64,000 bases of DNA from Chloroflexota bacterium (GTDB lineage Bacteria > Chloroflexota > UBA11872 > VXOZ01), in contig JAJEAH010000042.1 in assembly GCA_022824225.1 (NCBI GenBank), positions 2,216 through 66,215 of the forward strand, written 5' to 3'. Shown piece by piece: positions 8,925 to 61,657 of this stretch (its first letter is position 1; each line of letters begins with the position of its first letter). The position numbers and the translations under genes were made by a program. A model generated the notes under the pieces. It worked only from the letters and a program-made list of their open reading frames with translations, had not been told where the DNA came from and did no database searches.

Positions 8925-9450
8925 AGTAGATGTCATTCCGAGCGAAGCGAGGAATCTCAGGTGCTGGTATAGCAGGGCAATGCGCTAGGTTCCTCACTCC
9001 GCTGCGCTCCGATCGGAAGGACATGTGGAGGCAAGTAGGGAGAACATGCGCCTGTCGGGCCGCGCGGGGGCGCGATCCATGTTCTCTTAGTTGGCACACC
9101 CCACGACCGGAGGGGAGAAGCCCCGCGTTACACAGAGGAGTGCGAGACAGGGATCCGTCATTCCCGTGAAAACGGGAATCCATCTTCTCCGAAAAAGCAC
9201 CGCGCCAAGTCGAGCGGGGGGACAAGCCCCCGCGCTACCCGGAGGAGAGCAGGACGCACATCCGTCATTCCCGTGAAAACGGGAATACATCTTCTCCGAA
9301 AAAGCACCGCGCCCTGCCGAGCGGGGGACAAGCCCCCGCGCTACCCGGAGGAGAGCAGGATGCACATCCGTCATTCCCGTGAAAACGGGAATACATCTTC
9401 TCCGAAAAAGCACCGCGCCAAGTCGAGCGGGGAAAAATCCCCGCGCTACT
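8925..9450. repeat. array of REP-like modules, including three tandem about 105-bp copies of an A-unit plus B-unit composite, preceded by a small E-type hairpin variant (8928-9020)
   Basis: Tandem copies begin at about 9163, 9268 and 9373. The module is CCGTCATTCCCGTGAAAACGGGAATMCATCTTCTCCGAAAAAGCACCGCGCC....GAGCGGGGGACAAGCCCCCGCGCTACCCGGAGGAGAGCAGGA. Confidence 0.8.
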
Positions 9451-40290: not shown

Positions 40291-42372
40291 CTACGCCGAG
40301 GCTTCCTCTTTTTCGCGCTTGTGGGCTGCCACCACTTGCTCTTGGGTGCTGGCGGGAACCTGTTCGTAGCCCAGGAATTCAGACGAAAACGTGGCGCGGC
40401 CCTGGGTGAGCGAGCGCAGGTCGGTGGCGTAGCGCAGCACCTCCGCCTGCGGGACATCCGCCTGCACCTCCATGGTGCCGGGACTCACCATGTCCATGCT
40501 ATGCACCTTGGCACGGCGGCTCGTGAGGTCGCCAATCACGTCGCCCATGCGGTCTTCCGGCACGCGAACATTCATCTGCAGCACCGGCTCCAGCAGGACC
40601 GGCTTGGCGCGGTCCATAGCCTCGCCGAGCGCCATGGAGCCGGCGATCTGAAAGGCCAGGTCGGAGGAGTCCACCGTGTGCTCTTTGCCGTCCACCAGCG
40701 TCACCCGCAGGTCCACTACCTCGCCGCCGGCCAGCGTGCCTTCCTTCATGGCCTCGCGGATGCCCTTGTGCACCGCTTCGCGGAACGGGGCCGAGATCGC
40801 GCCGCCGAAGATCTTATCCACGAACTCGAAGCCTTCGCCCCGGTCCGTGGGTTCGAGCTCGATATTGCAGACGGCGTACTGGCCGTGGCCGCCGGTCTGG
40901 CGCACGAAGCGGCCCTCCGCCGCGGCCGTGCCCATGATGGTCTCTTTATATGGCACTCTGACGGGGACGGTCTTGACATCTGCCCCAAACTTGCGTTTCA
41001 TGCGCTCCAGCGCGACATTGATATGGGTCTCGCCAATGCCGGATAGCAAGGTCTGGCCCGTGATGGGCTGTCGTTCCACGTGCAAGCTGGGGTCTTCTTC
41101 CGTCACGCGGGCCAGGGCGCTGCTGAGCTTTTCCAGGTCTTCTTTCGAGGTTGGCTCGATGGCGGCGGTGAAGAGCCACGGCGGAAACGTAACCGCCGGC
41201 AACGTCAGCGGCTCTCTGCGTTCGCCCAGCGTGTGGCTGGTGAGGGTGGTGGCGAGTTTGGCCAGCGTGCCTATGTCGCCGGCGCCGATTTCCTGCGCCG
41301 ACTCCTGCTCCCGGCCGCGCACGAAGAGCAGTTGCCCAATGCGCTCCTCGGACTCGGTGTCCACGTTCCACACGCGGGAGTCCGAGCGCAATGTGCCCGA
41401 GTAGACGCGGATGAAGGACAGCTTGCCCACATAGGGATCCCCCAGGGTCTTGAACACGAACGCCGCCAGCGGGCCGTCGGCGTCGGCGGCGAGTTCGCGT
41501 TCCTCGCCGGCCTGGGTGGCTGTGGCCGGGCCGATCTCCGCGGGCGAGGGCAAGAAGCGCACCATGGCGTCCATGAGCGCCTGCACGCCTATGTTGCGGG
41601 TAGCCGAACCGCACAGCACCGGCGTAATCTGCCCGCTGAGCACACCCTCGTGCAGCGCGCCCTGCAGTTCCTCGGCGGAGATGTCCTCGCCTTCCAGGTA
41701 CTTCTCGGTCAAGTCGTCATCGAGTTCCACCACGTTCTCGATGAGGGTCATGCGGTACTCTTCCACCGTGTCCTCGAGCTCTGCCGGCACGGCGGTCTCG
41801 GTTACCTGGTTGTCGGCGCATGTGTAGGCAACGTTGGCCAGGACATCCACCACGCCCGAGAATTCGTTGGCGGCGCCGATGGGCACGTGCAACGGCGCCA
41901 CACCGTTGCCAAAGTACTCCCGCAGGCTGTCCACCGTGGCGAAGTAATCGGCGTTTTCCCGGTCCATGCGATTGACAAAGATGAGGCGCGGCAAATCGTG
42001 GGCCGTAATCCGCTCCCAAGACTCTTCCGTGCCCACTTGCACGCCGCCGGATACATCCACCACCAACACCGCGCCGTCCGACACGTGCAGCGCGCTGGCA
42101 ACCTCCCCGGCAAAGTCGGCGTACCCGGGCGTATCCAGCGTGTTTATCTTGACATCGCCCCATTCAACGGGTATGAGAGATAGATTGAGTGAGATCTGCC
42201 GCTTGACTTCGTCCGGATCGTAGTCGGAAACCGTGGTGCCGTTGTCTACGGAACCGAGACGATTGATCGCACCGGTAGCAAAGAGCATTGCTTCCGCGAG
42301 AGAGGTCTTGCCTGCGCCAACGTGGGAATAGAGTCCAACGTTGCGAATCGATTCCGTTGCATACGCCTTCAT
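40291..42372 (-). CDS. elongation factor G family GTPase (EF-G paralog) with switch-II His-to-Tyr substitution
   Basis: All five EF-G domains are recognisable (SHVGAGKTS P-loop, NRMD G4, domain IV/V conserved blocks). The switch II reads DTPGYADF instead of DTPGHxDF; TAC at this codon was verified on the nucleotide sequence. Start chosen at MKAYATESIRNVGL. Confidence 0.85.
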   Translation of the reverse strand: MKAYATESIRNVGLYSHVGAGKTSLAEAMLFATGAINRLGSVDNGTTVSDYDPDEVKRQISLNLSLIPVEWGDVKINTLDTPGYADFAGEVASALHVSDGAVLVVDVSGGVQVGTEESWERITAHDLPRLIFVNRMDRENADYFATVDSLREYFGNGVAPLHVPIGAANEFSGVVDVLANVAYTCADNQVTETAVPAELEDTVEEYRMTLIENVVELDDDLTEKYLEGEDISAEELQGALHEGVLSGQITPVLCGSATRNIGVQALMDAMVRFLPSPAEIGPATATQAGEERELAADADGPLAAFVFKTLGDPYVGKLSFIRVYSGTLRSDSRVWNVDTESEERIGQLLFVRGREQESAQEIGAGDIGTLAKLATTLTSHTLGERREPLTLPAVTFPPWLFTAAIEPTSKEDLEKLSSALARVTEEDPSLHVERQPITGQTLLSGIGETHINVALERMKRKFGADVKTVPVRVPYKETIMGTAAAEGRFVRQTGGHGQYAVCNIELEPTDRGEGFEFVDKIFGGAISAPFREAVHKGIREAMKEGTLAGGEVVDLRVTLVDGKEHTVDSSDLAFQIAGSMALGEAMDRAKPVLLEPVLQMNVRVPEDRMGDVIGDLTSRRAKVHSMDMVSPGTMEVQADVPQAEVLRYATDLRSLTQGRATFSSEFLGYEQVPASTQEQVVAAHKREKEEASA

Positions 42373-42466
42373 ACGGTTTGTACCCTTGGTGGAAGAAGAG
42401 GTATAGTGCACTTAAGTTTGGCATTATATACCAGAGTGTGGCAACGCATCAAAACCTCGCGACTAG

Positions 42467-42663
42467 TAGGTATTGGCTTAGGCTGCGCAGGTATGGGTGT
42501 CAACGTAAACGGCTGCCCCCCGAAATGTCATTCTGAGGAGTGCGGCTGACATGTCATTCTGAGGAGTGCAGCGACGAAGAATCTATTGTCGGGAGCACAC
42601 TAGATTCCGCGTCTTTGACGAAGTCAGCGAGTCCTGTTCGACGCTGCGCTCGGAATGGCATGA
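42467..42663 (+). mobile_element. E-type hairpin (MITE-like) element, copy 1, with conserved about 60-bp leader
   Basis: TGTCATTCTGAGGAGTGCAGCGACGAAGAATCTA....TAGATTCCGCGTC...GCTCGGAATGGCA forms nested inverted repeats. It is preceded by GTAGGTATTGGC...GGTGTCAACGTAAACGGCTGC, which is shared with the copies at 49659 and 51364. Confidence 0.6.
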
Positions 42664-42949
42664 GGTCTAGCCCATCAAGGTGATCGATCAAGAACTACTG
42701 ATTCCCCAAGACCTCCCTGCCGGTACGGGCAGTCCCTCTACGCTTGGGAGTGGTCGGGTTCGTGTCATGTAGTAGAACCATGCCGCAGCCGGCGGCAGGT
42801 GCTGTGTTGCAGGTTGCTACCTTTCCGCACCCCAACTGGATTGTGTTGTCTCACCTAGCGCGCGCCGGTGAGGGCCTTGGGGGAAACGGCCCGCAGCGAA
42901 TGTGCCGATGGGTCTTGTATGCCCGCCACGAAATAAGGGAGGTAGCTCG

Positions 42950-43321
42950 ATGCAAATGAGGATAATCAAAGTCGCGCTGCTCGTGCTCGCGGTCATGCAC
43001 CTGCTGTTCGTCGCCGTCACGGCGGCTGTCGGCGGATTTGCCGATGGCGGCGACCTCCTGCAACGACTGACCCTCATGGTCGTCCATCCGGTTACGGCCG
43101 TTGTGGTGCTGTACCTGGTGGCGGCGCGGGCGCCTGCGCCCATCGTGCTCCGAATCGGGTCCGTCCTCATTGCTCTCAACGTAGCCTTGGACGTGTACTT
43201 GGCAATTGCTTTCCTCTCCGGCGCCCTGCTCGGCGACTGGTGGCTGGCGGCCGCCTTTGCGGTGGTTCCCATACTCGGGTTGATCTACGCGTGGACGGCC
43301 TCGGCCCGGCGCGCTGCTTAG
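42950..43321 (+). CDS. hypothetical small membrane protein
   Basis: Four predicted TM helices. Start chosen at MQMRIIKVALL. No family recognised. Confidence 0.4.
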   Translation: MQMRIIKVALLVLAVMHLLFVAVTAAVGGFADGGDLLQRLTLMVVHPVTAVVVLYLVAARAPAPIVLRIGSVLIALNVALDVYLAIAFLSGALLGDWWLAAAFAVVPILGLIYAWTASARRAA

Positions 43322-43393
43322 ACGCCCCGCCACAGGCCCGGCCGTGACTGGCGAAACCGGCGCGAGTGTGCGCCCAACGGAGAAGGCGGGACG

Positions 43394-43840
43394 ATGGTGA
43401 GTCAACTCATCGGATCATTTCACACGCGGAACGCGGCACTGCAGGCCATCGAGGAACTGGCAGCACTGGGCAATGACGTGGAGTTCGTCCCGGTGGCACA
43501 CGGCGGGACCCGCGGAGCCGCGCTGCGCGTCATCTTGCGCAGCGCGCAGGGGGCCTTCATTGGCGGCGCTATTGGGCTGGCCGCCGTCTTCATCGTGCCG
43601 AGCGAGTTCCTGCTGCCTGTCGCGATCATTTGCAGCGCGGCTGGCGGACTGCTCAACGTCCGCCTCACCCGACCAAAGCCGCTCCCGATTGCGGTGGAGG
43701 ATCCAAGCGTACAGGTGCTCGTGATCGTGCAAGGCAGGGACCTGGAGACGGCCAGGATGGTGCTGCAGAAGGAAGGCGTCACGGCCATCCGGCAGATCGA
43801 CCCGGACACGGCGCGCCCTGCAGGGTCTGCCGGAGCCTAG
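43394..43840 (+). CDS. hypothetical protein with central hydrophobic segment
   Basis: 148-aa ORF with reasonable codon usage. No motif recognised. Confidence 0.35.
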   Translation: MVSQLIGSFHTRNAALQAIEELAALGNDVEFVPVAHGGTRGAALRVILRSAQGAFIGGAIGLAAVFIVPSEFLLPVAIICSAAGGLLNVRLTRPKPLPIAVEDPSVQVLVIVQGRDLETARMVLQKEGVTAIRQIDPDTARPAGSAGA

Positions 43841-44234
43841 GCACGCGGCTCTTGGGCGCGGGCGTGGGCGCGCGCTGCGACCGTGGAGTTGCGGCCCGGC
43901 CGCGGCGCGCCGGCATTGCGATCGCCGCGCTTCCGCCCTGCCGGCGAGTGCGACCCCTCTTTGCGTGACATAACCCCCGGCCTTTCGCCGCTCCCTCGTT
44001 CGCCAATGCGCTGGGTCGCGCCGGTAGTCTCCGGCCCCGGCGCGGCGACGTAGGGTTTGCCCCGCAGCGCGCAGCCACAGCACGGATGGGTGGCGGGGAA
44101 GGCTATGGTGGTGCGTTGGCCCGATGGCGCGCAGCCAAGCACACGCTCATTGACTGGATTGAAAGCAATCTGAGTAGGCCCCAATGCGCCCAGTGGCTGC
44201 GCTCGGCCGCGTGCTGTCGCGCTTGGTCCGGCGC

Positions 44235-45365
44235 TTACCGCGCGGCAATGCCGGCGGGTTGCAGGATCTCCTGCAAGCGCGCGATGACTGTCGGCACGTC
44301 CTCGGGGCGCAATGTAATGGGATCGATGAAGAGAAAACCCTCTTCAGCGTAGTGGTCGCGGGTGTAGATGGGCGGGGTGCCGGATTCGAGTGCCGCGCAG
44401 ACGGCCACGGCGTCCATGCCCGCCACTGCCGGATCGACCACGAACTTGGTGCGGGTCTGCGGATTGCCGGTAACGTCCCGCTCGGCAAATACGCTGACTC
44501 CGGGAATGCCCTGCAGCGCCGCCACCATCACGTCTACCTTGGCGTTCTGCTCGGCTTCCCAGGCGGCGTAGTCGAGATTCGCCAGCCACTCCATGCGCTC
44601 GATGACGCTCACGATGCCCTCTTTCGAAGGCTTCATGGCGCGGCCGATGCCGGTGCCCTGCAAGGCCGCTGCCGCCACCAAGTCGCGCCTGCCGGCAATG
44701 ACACCCGAGGTGAAGCCGCCCAGGTGCTTGTGACCGCTGAAACAGACCGCGTCGGCGCCTTCCGCCAGCAAACGATGCGCAAACAGCGCCCCTGCCGCGG
44801 CGTCGACAATCACGGGAAGGTTGTGGCGGTGGGCGATCGCGGCGAAGTCCGGCAGCGAAAGTTGGCCGCTGGCGGCGGTCATGTGGGAAACGACGTAGAG
44901 AGCGGCGGCGGTCTGTTCGGTGACGGCGTACTCCATTTGCTCCGGCAGCGCGCGGTTTGCCTCACCGAACTCAACAGCCTTGGCGCCGCTGAGGTGGACC
45001 ATCTGCGTCACCGGCGCGCCGAATCCAACTGTGTGCCGCTTCTGGATGATGACCTCGTTGCGCATGCGGCTGGTGTCGGGCAGCGCCAGCACTTTGCCCA
45101 GGTGCGTGCCGGTCATGGCTCCGGCACAAAGGACCGCGATGGCTGACGCCGCGCAGTGCGTTACCGTGCCGGCTTCCGCCCCGGTGGCGTGGGCAATGGC
45201 CGCATCGGCGGCGTCGAGCAGTTCCGTCATGCGCGCGAATTCCGGCGCTGCCTCCACCACCCGCTCCACTACCGCAGGCGGCACGGACGATGCGCCCAGC
45301 GTGGTCTGCGTGCCCGCGGTGTTGATGATGGGCGTCAAGCCATAGCGTTCGTGGTACCTGGACAT
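44235..45365 (-). CDS. SelA-like/DgaE-like fold-type I PLP-dependent enzyme
   Basis: FSGHKHLGG (PLP-lysine context, cf. SelA SGDKLLGG) and overall collinearity with the L-seryl-tRNA(Sec) selenium transferase-related family. Start chosen at MSRYHERYGLTPIIN. Confidence 0.55.
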   Translation of the reverse strand: MSRYHERYGLTPIINTAGTQTTLGASSVPPAVVERVVEAAPEFARMTELLDAADAAIAHATGAEAGTVTHCAASAIAVLCAGAMTGTHLGKVLALPDTSRMRNEVIIQKRHTVGFGAPVTQMVHLSGAKAVEFGEANRALPEQMEYAVTEQTAAALYVVSHMTAASGQLSLPDFAAIAHRHNLPVIVDAAAGALFAHRLLAEGADAVCFSGHKHLGGFTSGVIAGRRDLVAAAALQGTGIGRAMKPSKEGIVSVIERMEWLANLDYAAWEAEQNAKVDVMVAALQGIPGVSVFAERDVTGNPQTRTKFVVDPAVAGMDAVAVCAALESGTPPIYTRDHYAEEGFLFIDPITLRPEDVPTVIARLQEILQPAGIAAR

Positions 45366-45434
45366 GCTATGCGACCTACCTCTCTCCGCTTGTGATTCAA
45401 GACCTACCTGAACGTCATTTGCCTGTAAACGGCG

Positions 45435-45480
45435 TTGGGGCACGGCATAGTGTAGGGGCACGGCATGCCGTGCCCCTACG
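45435..45480. repeat. C-type perfect palindrome GTAGGGGCACGGCATGCCGTGCCCCTAC plus adjacent half-copy
   Basis: 28-bp perfect palindrome at 45452-45479, about 70 nt upstream of the SelA-like start. Family members sit at 49427, 57745, 58656 and 61658. Confidence 0.85.
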
Positions 45481-45818
45481 CTCCAAGTTGCTCGTACGTG
45501 TACAAGAGTCCTCGCGTTTGGGTCTGAAAGCCCCTCTCCCGTCGAGGGAGAGGGTTGGGGTGAGGGTGAATGTTGCCAGTCAGGCAAACCTGCCCATAGT
45601 AAACAACCACGCATTCACGCTATCCCAACGCAGCAGCAACCTACCCTTCACAATTCTCCTCCGGACGATCGAGGATAGCCTGTATCTGCGGCTTCAGAAC
45701 TGCCCAAGAGGGCAACCACAAGGGTTGCCCCTACGTGTTGGTCGTTTGACGGCGCCGTACGGCCCGGTGGCCGGCGGCAGCCAGGTTGCCTCTACGTGTT
45801 GTTGGTAGCTTGACGGGA

Positions 45819-49141: not shown

Positions 49142-49658
49142 CGGTCCCCCTCCTCCACAATTGCTGCTGAACGCAGGTCTATCATACTGGAAAAAGCGCC
49201 TGCCTCCTAAGCCGCGGCGCCGGGACTCATGCGCTAGCGGGGCAACTCGGCTTGAGTATTATGTTGACGTAGGGCGGAGCCCAAGAGCGGGGTACAAGCC
49301 CCCGCGCTACAGGACGTTTTTCCGTTCCCGTGGGGCGGAGCCCAAGTGCGGGGGACAAGCCCCAATGGTGTCGCATTAAAGTCGAAAGCGAGCGATAGAC
49401 AGTCGCCGCTTGGTTTGTCAAGCTGTCGTAGGGGCACCACATTTCGTGCCCCTAAGACAGCCAAACAGAGTTTAAATAGCCATAGCAACAGAGGTTACCA
49501 TGGGATCCCAAGGCAGGAACCTAATGCGACAGCATTAGGGACAGGCCCCCGCGCTACAGGAGGTTTTTTCCCTCCCGTGGGGCAGAGCCGGTTGCCCGGA
49601 GGCCATGTGCGGCGGCAATTGCAGGCAGCGCACAGCGAACTGGGCTTGGTTCGCGGTT

Positions 49659-49932
49659 GGTAGGTATTGACTGGGGCTGCACAGGTCTGGGTGTCAACGT
49701 AAACGGCTGCTCATCAGAATGCCATACTGAGGAGTGCAGCCGCTATGCCATTCTGTGGGGTGCAGCCGATATGCCATTCTGAGCAGTTCAGCCGATATGC
49801 CATTCTGAGCAGTTCAGCCGATCTGTCATTCTGAGGAGTGCAGCGACGAAGAATCTAGTGTCGGGAGCACACTAGATTCCGCGTCTTTGACGAAGTCAGC
49901 GAACCCTGTTCGTCGCTACGCTCGGAATGACA
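49659..49932 (+). mobile_element. E-type hairpin (MITE-like) element, copy 2, with internal 20-bp tandem reiterations
   Basis: Same leader and terminal inverted repeats as copy 1. The central part carries three to four tandem ATGCCATTCTGAGCAGTTCAGCCGAT-like units. Confidence 0.6.
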
Positions 49933-49965
49933 CTGATTGCCGTCCCAAATGACATAGAGGGTGCA

Positions 49966-50102
49966 GCATTCGGCTTGGCGTGGGCGCGTGCTGCGCTCGG
50001 TTTGGCGTGGGCGTGTACCGCGTTCGGTTTGGTGTGGGCGCGTGCTTCGCTCGGTTTGGCGTGGGCGCAGGCTGCGTTCGGCGTGGCATGGATGTGCGTT
50101 CC
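49966..50102. repeat. tandem direct repeat, 27-bp unit, five copies (GYTCGGYTTGGCGTGGGCGYGTGCTKC)
   Basis: Read directly. The period of 27 keeps frame, so ORF 49927..50139 translates it as FGLAWARAA x5. It lies between the E-type copy 2 and tRNA-Pro. Confidence 0.75.
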
Positions 50103-50104
50103 CT

Positions 50105-50240
50105 GTCTTATGTCATTCCGACCCTTGCGAGGAATCTAGCGCCCCCGCAACGTGCCGCCCGCTTGGCGCGGCTCCTTAGATTCCTCACTGCGCTGCGCTC
50201 CGTTCGGAATGACATTGGATTAGTCGCTACGTTCGGAATG
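50105..50240. repeat. degenerate E-type hairpin fragments
   Basis: ATGTCATTCCGACCCTTGCGAGGAATCTAG ... TAGATTCCTCACTGCGCTGCGCTCCGTTCGGAATGACAT, plus a further CGGAATGACAT end. Confidence 0.55.
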
Positions 50241-50413
50241 ACATTCGATACTCCCTTCGCGCTACCTCTTCACCCCTCCCCGTCTCCCCGTCTTCTACAA
50301 CATACAAATGACATGAGATTTGGCCCAGCAAGGAGTTCAAGTCCAATTCTGCTAGTTCCCGCTTGGTTCCCTGTTGAGACGCGGGAGCATACTTGCTAGA
50401 ATAGGCATGTAAC

Positions 50414-50490
50414 CGGGGCGTGGCTCAGCCTGGTAGAGCGCAGCGTTCGGGACGCTGAGGCCGGCGGTTCAAATCCGCCCGCCCCGACCA
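50414..50490 (+). tRNA. tRNA-Pro (anticodon CGG)
   Basis: Cloverleaf folded by hand: acceptor CGGGGCG/CGCCCCG (C1-G72), D arm GCTC-AGCCTGGTA-GAGC, anticodon arm CAGCG-TTCGGGA-CGCTG with CGG at positions 34-36, T arm GGCGG-TTCAAAT-CCGCC, discriminator A, encoded CCA. Confidence 0.9.
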
Positions 50491-50622
50491 TTCGTGTAGT
50501 CACCCGCATGGCAGCGGCTGCCGTGCTTGTGGCTGCATTAAGTGTATGCAGGGCAGTTTCGCGTTTGTGCGACGCCGGCGGGCAGCTTAACGCTGCGTGC
50601 GGTCATTTCCGGGAGACGTGGG

Positions 50623-50934
50623 ATGCAACAAGATCCGCGACAAGCGTCGGTAGATAAACTCATCGTCGCCGTGGTGCGGAATGACGACGCGAACAAGATC
50701 GTGGATGAACTCGTGAAGCGGCGCATCGGCAACACGCGCATCAATACGGCCGGCGGCGTCCTCCGTCGCGGCAACGTTACGCTCCTGATCGGCGTGCCCA
50801 CGCATCAGGTGGATGAAGCTTTGGAAGCTATTCGCGAGAACGTGAGCGGCCAGCCCCTTACCGGCAGCGGCCAGACCGGCGACAATCGCGGTGTGGCGTT
50901 CGTCCTGGATGCCGGTCGCTACGTGCGCGTCTGA
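50623..50934 (+). CDS. darA: c-di-AMP receptor DarA/PstA (PII-like, DUF970)
   Basis: DKLIVAVVRNDDANKIVDELVKRRIGNTRINTAGGVLRRGNVTLLIGV aligns closely with B. subtilis DarA ([47 protein letters not shown]). Start chosen at MQQDPRQ. Confidence 0.75.
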   Translation: MQQDPRQASVDKLIVAVVRNDDANKIVDELVKRRIGNTRINTAGGVLRRGNVTLLIGVPTHQVDEALEAIRENVSGQPLTGSGQTGDNRGVAFVLDAGRYVRV

Positions 50935-51363
50935 GAGCCTGACCGCAATCGTCTAGTCTGCCCGATTAACGCGCTCGGCCCAATACAATACGTGGCGGGC
51001 TCAGTGGTTGCTGGCGCCAATGCAAGTGCGCGAATAGCCGTTCACGCTGTGACAGGCCGGCACTGAGCTTGTCGAAGTGCCCAGCACGAACGGTCTCCAC
51101 CGGCTTTTGTGGACTCCCTCTAAGCAGGTCGCAAACAGTCTCTCAGATTGCGGCCGGCCCGCGTAGGCGTTTAATGGCGAGGCGCCGGTCGTTTGCGGTG
51201 GGTAATCGCTCACCCCGGAGTCCGAGCCGGCGGCGGGCCTGATCGGCGCGACAATACTGTCTATTGAGCGGGTCGCCAACCGGTTCCGTCCGTCTAGGCC
51301 CCGGCCTCACCCACTGCCGTCGCAACGTTGCCGGACTCGCGGCAGCCGTTCACTCCGCGATCA

Positions 51364-51500
51364 GTAGGCTACAACTTAGTCTGCACAGGCATGAGTGTCA
51401 ACGCAAACGGCTGCGCCTCGATATGTCATTCTGAGGAGTGCAGCGACGAAGAATCTAGAGTCGGGGGCATACTAGATTCCTCGCTGCACTCGGAATGACA
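51364..51500 (+). mobile_element. E-type hairpin (MITE-like) element, copy 3
   Basis: Leader AGTAGGCTACAAC...GAGTGTCAACGCAAACGGCTGC, then TGTCATTCTGAGGAGTGCAGCGACGAAGAATCTAGAGTCGGGGGCATACTAGATTCC...CACTCGGAATGACA. Same orientation as copies 1 and 2. Confidence 0.6.
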
Positions 51501-51774
51501 TGATATCTAGCACAGCAAGGAGACCAAGTCTAAATCTACTAATTCCCGTTCACTCGGGCCTTGTCTACGGACTATCGGCGGCAGACTAGCGCGCCACATC
51601 ACCAAGCATGCTTGCCCCCCAGCGATAGGTCCGGCATGTGCGGGCCCGCCGTGTGCGTCATGTCCTCGTTATACGTCACTCCGGTAGATCCGGCGTGCCC
51701 GTATTCCGCGGCAGCAAATGTCAGGGAATGTGCGCCGCCGCACAGGCGCAAGCCGACAGCATGGTAGAGGGCCG

Positions 51775-61292: not shown

Positions 61293-61657
61293 AACTGTCT
61301 CACTTCCTCACTTGTGGTTGGGGCTGGCCCCGGTACTCTCGCTCGGCGTTTCAGCGCACAGCCGGACTCGGTGTCATAGCTGCGCCGGTTGGCGCAGCGC
61401 AACGGACCGCCGGCGGCCGCTCTATTCCGGTAGCGCAGGTTTGCAACCTGTGTCCGCCGGTAGCCGCCCTACTCCGGTAGCGCAGGTTTGCAACCTGCTT
61501 CCGCCAAAGACGCAATCCATGCCGCCCTCTTATCCACCATTCCGCTCGTATTGCGTCCCCGCCGTTGGCAGTGCAAACGGCGGGGGGCAAGCCCCAATAT
61601 TGTCGCATTAATGCCGAAAGCCAGGATCAGATTGCCGCTACCCGGACTGTCAACTAC

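Follow-up and report, generated by a model that had tools for sequence, protein, structure and literature searches.

The BOX elements of Streptococcus pneumoniae are assembled as boxA + n x boxB + boxC, measure 67 to 637 bp and carry terminal inverted repeats (TIRs) and target-site duplications (TSDs) (PMC3049150). In the stretch of DNA analyzed here, 64,000 nucleotides from an uncultured Chloroflexota bacterium (assembly GCA_022824225.1, contig JAJEAH010000042.1; hereafter the window), we observe a repeat family whose closest analogue in build is this pneumococcal element. Three copies are present in the 64-kb window, all on the + strand and with a common order of modules, and we consider it likely that they represent a small, non-coding, hairpin-carrying miniature inverted-repeat transposable element (MITE) that inserted separately at three sites. 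The family is new, and its modular build is BOX-like. As in BOX, the element is modular and non-coding, its end modules pair, an internal module is tandemly repeated a variable number of times, and the size range is wide (192 to 709 bp here). TIRs, TSDs, intergenic sites and nesting with other repeats are further shared traits. The repeated module, however, is a hairpin half-arm here and a free-standing box in BOX, and the present element is GC-rich, resides in another phylum and makes an 8-bp duplication; the likeness is one of build, and no sequence relationship is claimed.

Comparison with the classical MITEs (Correia/NEMIS, RUP, ERIC, Nezha) points in a similar direction. These share with the present family a small size, TIRs, strong base pairing, a flanking target duplication, insertion beside genes and promoters, and presumed mobilization in trans. 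Correia and RUP elements duplicate TA. An insertion sequence (IS) partner has been identified or proposed for the classical MITEs; for the family described here none was found in the window or the fetched loci, and it is characterized by an 8-bp duplication and by a separately widespread hairpin as its cargo. In the limited literature covered, the small repeats described in Chloroflexota are mainly of the repetitive extragenic palindromic (REP) type, to which the present family adds MITEs supported by TSDs.

Homology among the three copies begins at CGCGAYYAGTAGG and stops at CTACTRRTTCCC, which sets the following copy limits.

42450-42457, + strand: left TSD of copy 1, CAAAACCT
42458-42706, + strand: copy 1, 249 bp, with leader (42458-42520), two 26-nt left half-arms (42521-42572), hairpin (approximately 42550-42664) and tail (42652-42706)
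42707-42714, + strand: right TSD of copy 1, CAAGACCT; CAAAACCT in the sister strain (L018/L019), identical to the left TSD
49644-49651, + strand: left TSD of copy 2, GCTTGGTT
49652-50360, + strand: copy 2, 709 bp, matching the leader and tail profiles and with matched 8-bp duplications at both outer ends
50361-50368, + strand: right TSD of copy 2, GCTTGGTT
51348-51355, + strand: left TSD of copy 3, GTTCACTC
51356-51547, + strand: copy 3, 192 bp, the most compact form, with leader (51356-51418), one left arm, hairpin (51423-51500) and tail (51491-51547)
51548-51555, + strand: right TSD of copy 3, GTTCACTC

Each copy is directly bounded by its own 8-bp direct repeat, the sequence of which differs from site to site, and the duplication thus has the same length at all three copies. 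The left and right duplications agree at 23 of 24 positions over the three copies. When all boundary offsets were scanned, the match was maximal exactly at the homology limits of the copies, and none of 200,000 random triples of 8-mers reached 23 matches. The single mismatch, in copy 1, is resolved by the sister strain (95 to 98.6% identical to the window; samples SAMN22237333 and GCA_022822585.1), since its right flank reads as the left one does; there the element differs at 1 of 249 nt and the flanking duplication is perfect. By published criteria (PMC3049150), transposition is diagnosed from TIRs together with a target duplication whose length is constant while its sequence varies, and the architecture of the copies also agrees with what has been published for MITEs. 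The three copies are three independent transposition events, whose signature is found in the 8-bp duplications.

Alignment of the copies shows a common plan consisting of a leader of approximately 63 nt, 1 to 5 tandem 26-nt left half-arms, a long hairpin and a tail of approximately 55 nt (ATGACATGAG..CAGCAAGGAG..CTACTRRTTCCC). A preliminary description of this DNA had reported three copies in the same orientation with a conserved leader and a strong predicted hairpin, and had called them MITE-like. All of this is borne out: the leader box GGTGTCAACGTAAACGGCTGC has three matches, all on the + strand, at 42496, 49690 and 51394 (0, 0 and 2 mismatches, respectively) and no match in any of 100 shuffles; the inner hairpins fold far more stably than shuffled controls (z-scores of -3.4 to -7.4); and every copy combines TIRs with a flanking duplication of its own. 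Of the hairpin arm TGTCATTCTGAGGAG there are 9 occurrences (1.0 expected), all of them within the three units. These units were also recovered by a repeat finder, along with both tandem arrays (26 nt and 27 nt) and a conserved 55-nt downstream block (family D7). With regard to size, the preliminary figure of 140 to 270 bp described real copies, but their limits had to be redrawn, as the tail of approximately 55 nt had been overlooked and copy 2 measures 709 bp, not approximately 270 bp. Similarly, what had been described there as nested TIRs proved to be the inner hairpin arms; the element itself starts with CGCGAYYAGTAG... and finishes with ...CTACTRRTTCCC. Aligned with the reverse-complemented tail, the leader shows imperfect inverted repeats over approximately 40 nt, with CGCGAYYAGTAG standing against the reverse complement GGGAAYYAGTAG, and in minimum-energy folds the two ends of the element pair with each other. 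Within the window, the terminus motif is found at the three copies only. We also considered the tail as a tRNA fragment (GGAGTTCAAGTCC); this was ruled out, as the stem is not conserved among the copies.

Copy 2, by far the longest, is a single element grown internally. Everything between the GCTTGGTT pair belongs to one insertion, since the matched duplications stand at 49644-49651 and 50361-50368, and the following parts can be distinguished within it.

49715-49844, + strand: five tandem 26-nt left half-arms, from the repeat finder
49824-49932, + strand: hairpin 2a, sharing 90% identity with that of copy 1
49961-50091, + strand: 27-bp array of 4.5 units, a tandem expansion of a degenerate right half-arm
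50111-50314, + strand: nested second element, with the variant hairpin 2b at 50111-50215, a further right half-arm and a linker rich in C

Aligned to the right half-arm of copy 1 (GCTGCGCTCGGAATGGCATG versus GCTGCGCTCGGTTTGGCGTG), the unit of the 27-bp array scores 15, against a maximum of 13 in 2,000 shuffles, and in the fold the array pairs in part with the left half-arm array. The stretch at 50111-50314 is homologous to repeats at two loci of the relative L012 (81%, 76%, and 75.5%), and because a homologous repeat sits at these two loci we regard it as a nested insertion. Half-arm duplication is recurrent, with two left half-arms in copy 1, five left and approximately 4.5 right half-arms in copy 2, and two right half-arms at hairpin 2b; a similar case is seen in L015. 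This BOX-like growth, through tandem duplication of half-arms on both sides of a hairpin, is of modest wider interest.

The space between copies 2 and 3 holds two host genes.

50374-50402, + strand: tRNA-Pro promoter, outside the element, TTGAGA-17-TAGAAT with an upstream TG, kept in L009, L011, L012 and L021
50414-50490, + strand: tRNA-Pro(CGG), host gene
50623-50934, + strand: host gene for a darA-like cyclic-di-AMP receptor (PF06153)

Both genes had been noted in the preliminary description as part of a 1.4-kb segment bracketed by direct copies, which was taken to be formerly mobile or prone to recombination. The tRNA-Pro and darA genes are indeed present between the copies, but the 27-bp array (given there as five units, found here as 4.5) and the degenerate fragments of the element counted in that segment lie inside copy 2, the array being its degenerate right half-arm expansion. 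What really separates copies 2 and 3 is 50369-51347, that is, tRNA-Pro, darA and a 413-bp spacer. That the two copies are arms of a composite transposon or of a recombination cassette that moved tRNA-Pro and darA is hardly credible. They do stand in direct orientation around both genes, and the gene order to the right of darA is unlike that in relatives, but a shared outer duplication is lacking: GCTTGGTT lies to the left of copy 2 and GTTCACTC to the right of copy 3. Since each copy keeps its own matched pair, copies 2 and 3 arrived separately and did not recombine with each other, and the composite explanation is already contradicted by this pattern. Moreover, the order S-methyltransferase, tRNA-Pro, darA is kept in relatives that lack the element (e.g., L009 and L021), and the darA/dUTPase junction recurs in the sister strain, where copy 3 is missing. 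The adjacency of tRNA-Pro and darA is ancestral, because relatives without the element have both the adjacency and the tRNA promoter; as it predates the elements, movement of the bracketed segment is unsupported, and copy 2 itself accounts for the greater part of the bracketed material in any case. The places where synteny breaks in this species are not those of the elements: the break between darA and dUTPase exists without copy 3, and the junction between EF-G and SelA synteny falls between a 148-aa open reading frame (ORF) and the SelA-like gene rather than at copy 1. The element is best read as junk DNA of a sort that is ordinary in bacteria, not as a mobile tRNA/darA cassette, a suggestion that can be removed. 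Together the repeats explain approximately 1.15 kb of non-coding DNA around tRNA-Pro and darA. They also explain the breaks of short-read assembly at these sites: contigs assembled from short reads of the same sample match the window exactly and stop within the repeats, and contigs L002, L003, and L020 terminate inside repeats.

At 192, 249, and 709 bp the copies are small, and they have no capacity to encode a protein: each of the six frames is interrupted by stops, and the sole ATG-initiated ORF encodes 18 to 35 aa, with CTG in place of ATG in copy 2. A small peptide encoded by the leader (MGVNVNGC...CHSEEC) was rejected as a candidate, because the copies differ from one another by non-synonymous changes and CTG replaces its ATG in copy 2. 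A chimeric six-frame protein query for spurious ORFs over other copies gave no match at E<=0.1. With phmmer, a 50-aa translation of leader and hairpin, searched against 1.84 billion representative proteins, matched one repetitive protein unrelated to the element and two ORFs, both spurious, that overlie hairpin arms.

With no protein encoded, the copies might be kept for an RNA function, as a repeated small-RNA gene or a cis-regulatory RNA formed by leader and hairpin, a possibility also raised in the preliminary description. We find this very unlikely. The 21-nt leader box is the best-conserved part of the element (21/21, 21/21, and 19/21), the predicted structures are strong, and the terminal AGTAG/CTACT pairing is altered in copy 2 by two substitutions, both to G-U on the + strand. 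No Rfam 15 model matches the element, however: at the gathering threshold only the tRNA is returned, and relaxing to E<=1 adds only microRNA models far below their thresholds. Neither a sigma-70-like promoter upstream nor a terminator downstream is present on the + strand. The flanking duplications show that the copies arose by insertion, their genomic contexts are unrelated to one another, and the unit is not found in close relatives. Folding and a check for covariation had been proposed in the preliminary description, and here only the strength of the hairpins was upheld. In an alignment of 11 hairpin sequences from four genomes, the stems TGTCATTCYGA/TCGGAATGACA and GARGAATCTA/TAGATTCYTC are conserved in sequence, without compensatory changes, the center is variable, and covariation is essentially absent. 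Recognition at the level of DNA sequence accounts for such conservation more readily than selection acting on an RNA fold.

For the MITE family we infer mobilization by a DDE-type transposase. Acting in trans, this enzyme would bind both ends of the element and make 8-bp staggered cuts in the target, and gap repair would then duplicate the 8 bp. After insertion, the hairpin half-arms would duplicate in tandem by slippage at the hairpin, and a second hairpin element would have nested into copy 2. The other route to be considered is movement as a single-stranded hairpin by a tyrosine (HUH, RAYT/TIRYT) transposase, as for REP and REPIN elements. Like a REPIN, the element is a long hairpin of two inverted end sequences, with GTAG and CTAC placed 8 nt in from the left and right terminus, respectively. 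Some families with long TIRs are linked to tyrosine transposases, GTAG-tagged REPs abound in this genome and are known in Chloroflexi (PMC3733652), and the inner hairpin opens with TGTC+AT in the manner of certain tagged REPs (see below). We nevertheless judge this route improbable. In place of a palindrome of 20 to 40 bp after GTAG, as in REPs, there is just the 8-nt CTGCGCAG in copy 1, and no RAYT gene was found among the gene-family-annotated parts of the window and loci. In addition, 8-bp duplications flank three of the three copies, whereas neither IS200/IS605- nor RAYT-type movement is known to create a TSD, and REPINs are not known to carry one.

The inner hairpin on its own also shows some likeness to CGTC/TGTC-tagged REPs, which have stems of 7 to 9 bp, loops of 4 to 5 nt, an unpaired tag and a CCA tail (PMC3733652). 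It opens with TGTC followed by AT, as in the TGTC variants of these REPs, and like them it is an intergenic palindrome found across distant taxa for which no dedicated transposase is known (PMC3733652). Despite this TGTC+AT start, its tag is paired and a CCA tail is lacking, and at 53 to 112 nt, with invariant stems of 11 and approximately 9 bp and a variable center of 20 to 50 nt, it is several times as long as these REPs and falls outside their structural definition.

Comparison across genomes shows copy 3 to be polymorphic between strains: it is present in one strain and missing in the sister strain as part of a larger deletion, and tRNA-Pro and darA, which lie in the bracketed space, are adjacent in relatives that lack the element.

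51338-51715, + strand: 369-bp stretch including copy 3, between CGCGGCAGC 9-mers at 51338-51346 and 51707-51715, missing in the sister strain

The sister strain (L020) lacks two stretches of the darA/dUTPase spacer, one of 144 bp (51134-51277) and one of 369 bp (51338-51706). Both deletions are bounded by direct repeats of 9 to 10 bp (GGTCGCAAAC/GGTCGCCAAC and CGCGGCAGC, respectively), and thus look microhomology-mediated. The darA/dUTPase junction is found in the sister strain as well, without copy 3. In 273 kb of fetched sequence, nhmmer searches with leader and tail profiles gave matches limited to the window and the sister strain, and thus revealed no further copies, a search for which had been proposed in the preliminary description; none is present in the approximately 420 bp beyond the window end either. 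The element was not found in the orthologous spacers of the loci of six relatives, nor in other loci (relatives at 82 to 89% protein identity). A BLAST search of the hairpin against plasmids returned nothing, and a literature search on sequence strings gave only irrelevant hits among the matches listed.

Several observations weigh against the interpretation of the repeats as a MITE. The outermost 4 to 6 nt of the two ends match poorly (CGCGAC versus GGGAAT), and all three copies fall inside 9.1 kb of the 64-kb window that was searched. An autonomous element or a transposase with matching ends, which the preliminary description had proposed to look for, was not found in the window or the fetched loci. 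A clean empty site was not found, the spacers of relatives being too diverged beyond the promoters to align, and the sister strain lost copy 3 through the 369-bp deletion and thus offers no precise absence. Finally, scans for the exact leader 20-mer in GTDB species representatives, JGI metagenomes and IMG/VR retrieved just chance matches of 20 to 29 nt.

EF-G homologues at 86 to 89% identity are encoded on contigs of 3.3 to 3.7 Mb, and EF-G matches labelled Chloroflexi, Chloroflexota or Dehalococcoidia show 51 to 54% identity. In relatives with 82 to 86% darA identity, the gene order SelA-like, SBP, small ORFs, S-methyltransferase, tRNA-Pro, darA is kept. Among them, the spacer between S-methyltransferase and tRNA lacks a hairpin in L009 and L021, contains a bare one in L011 (9508-9584) and has in L012 a variant one with different outer arms.

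The hairpin module follows the pattern TGTCATTCYGA..GARGAATCTA-loop-TAGATTCCTC..TCGGAATGACA and is long and GC-rich. It is also found alone or inside other outer arms, both in related genomes and in unrelated metagenomic contigs. In IMG/VR, the left-arm pattern was found at 40 sites in 32 stretches (L023-L054), with a matching right arm within 110 nt at 21 of the 40; these hairpins measure 53 to 112 nt, and the contigs have 36 to 62% GC. Membership of the cargo in such a very widely distributed palindrome family is likewise of modest wider interest. It is conceivable, if rather doubtful, that the inner hairpin is itself a mobile or protein-recognized unit conserved across phyla, its two stems keeping an invariant sequence in genomes of 36 to 62% GC, with MITEs like these as lineage-specific vehicles that captured it. 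If so, the duplication of half-arms on both of its sides would be a footprint of processing, e.g., of nicking at the hairpin base followed by template switching.

Further occurrences of the hairpin module are seen at 8932-9022 and 1680-1760 of the window and in L011, L012, and L015. Relatives also carry 143-bp elements (L011, 13279-13421; L012, 9425-9567; L015, 2404-2546) in which the same hairpin lies within another outer inverted repeat, CTGACAGGGGTAGG...CCTACCCCTGTCAG. The L011 copy has TCTCCCGCTG on both flanks and sits in the loop of a CCCTCTCCC/GGGAGAGGG repeat. These elements probably represent a sister MITE family with a longer target duplication. Homology of the leader to the outer arms of relatives, which have GTAGGTATT in common with it, was not confirmed by nhmmer.

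Host promoters are conserved up to the element ends. Copies 1 and 2 inserted 0 to 5 bp upstream of the -35 hexamers of the EF-G-like gene and of tRNA-Pro, respectively, and left both promoters intact. The EF-G-like promoter (TTGATG-18-TATAAT, 42452 to 42423, minus strand) is kept in L015/L016; the left duplication of copy 1 overlaps its -35 hexamer TTGATG (42452-42447, minus strand) by 3 nt, and beside this copy homology with relatives resumes at GGTTTTGATGCG. Between the right duplication of copy 2 and the tRNA-Pro -35 hexamer, downstream of it, there are 5 bp. Copy 3 is located between the convergent darA and dUTPase genes. The 413-bp spacer downstream of darA (50935-51347) contains no called gene, and its 92-aa ORF (51001-51279, minus strand) has no Pfam match; this spacer differs between strains by insertions and deletions.

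Read on the minus strand, the leader box (42496-42516, 49690-49710, 51394-51414) gives TTGACA and, after 17 nt, TAAGCC, CCAGTC or TAAGTT. This TTGACA-17-hexamer arrangement resembles a weak, outward-facing promoter, which in copy 1 faces the EF-G-like gene; that the leader box supplies an outward -35 hexamer towards that gene is conceivable, if doubtful. The tandem half-arms likewise give minus-strand matches to ATGACA-16-CAGAAT (42557-42530 and 49829-49802).

In a gene-order comparison at 40291-45614 of the window, made against L015/L016 and L011, the EF-G-like locus and the SelA-like/SBP/S-methyltransferase/tRNA-Pro/darA locus lie 8 kb apart here and approximately 355 kb apart in ERZ21830300 ctg717522c. 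Downstream of darA, dUTPase/DivIC are found here and AP-endonuclease/ThiS/PALP in four relatives.

Other repeats accompany the family in the window. At 9153-9449, a 106-bp unit is repeated 2.8 times in tandem, each unit being a canonical CGTC-type REP, CCGTCATTCCCGTGAAAACGGGAATACA, joined to one of the GTAG type, GGGGGACAAGCCCCCGCGCTAC. Other palindrome families of the GTAG-tagged REP kind (e.g., GTAGGGGCACGGCATGCCGTGCCCCTAC and GGGGACAAGCCCCCGCGCTAC) are seen at 49260-49600, 45430-45482, 45709-45735, 49428-49454, and 61407-61505, and palindromes of this kind are concentrated in the long spacer that immediately precedes copy 2, as well as elsewhere.

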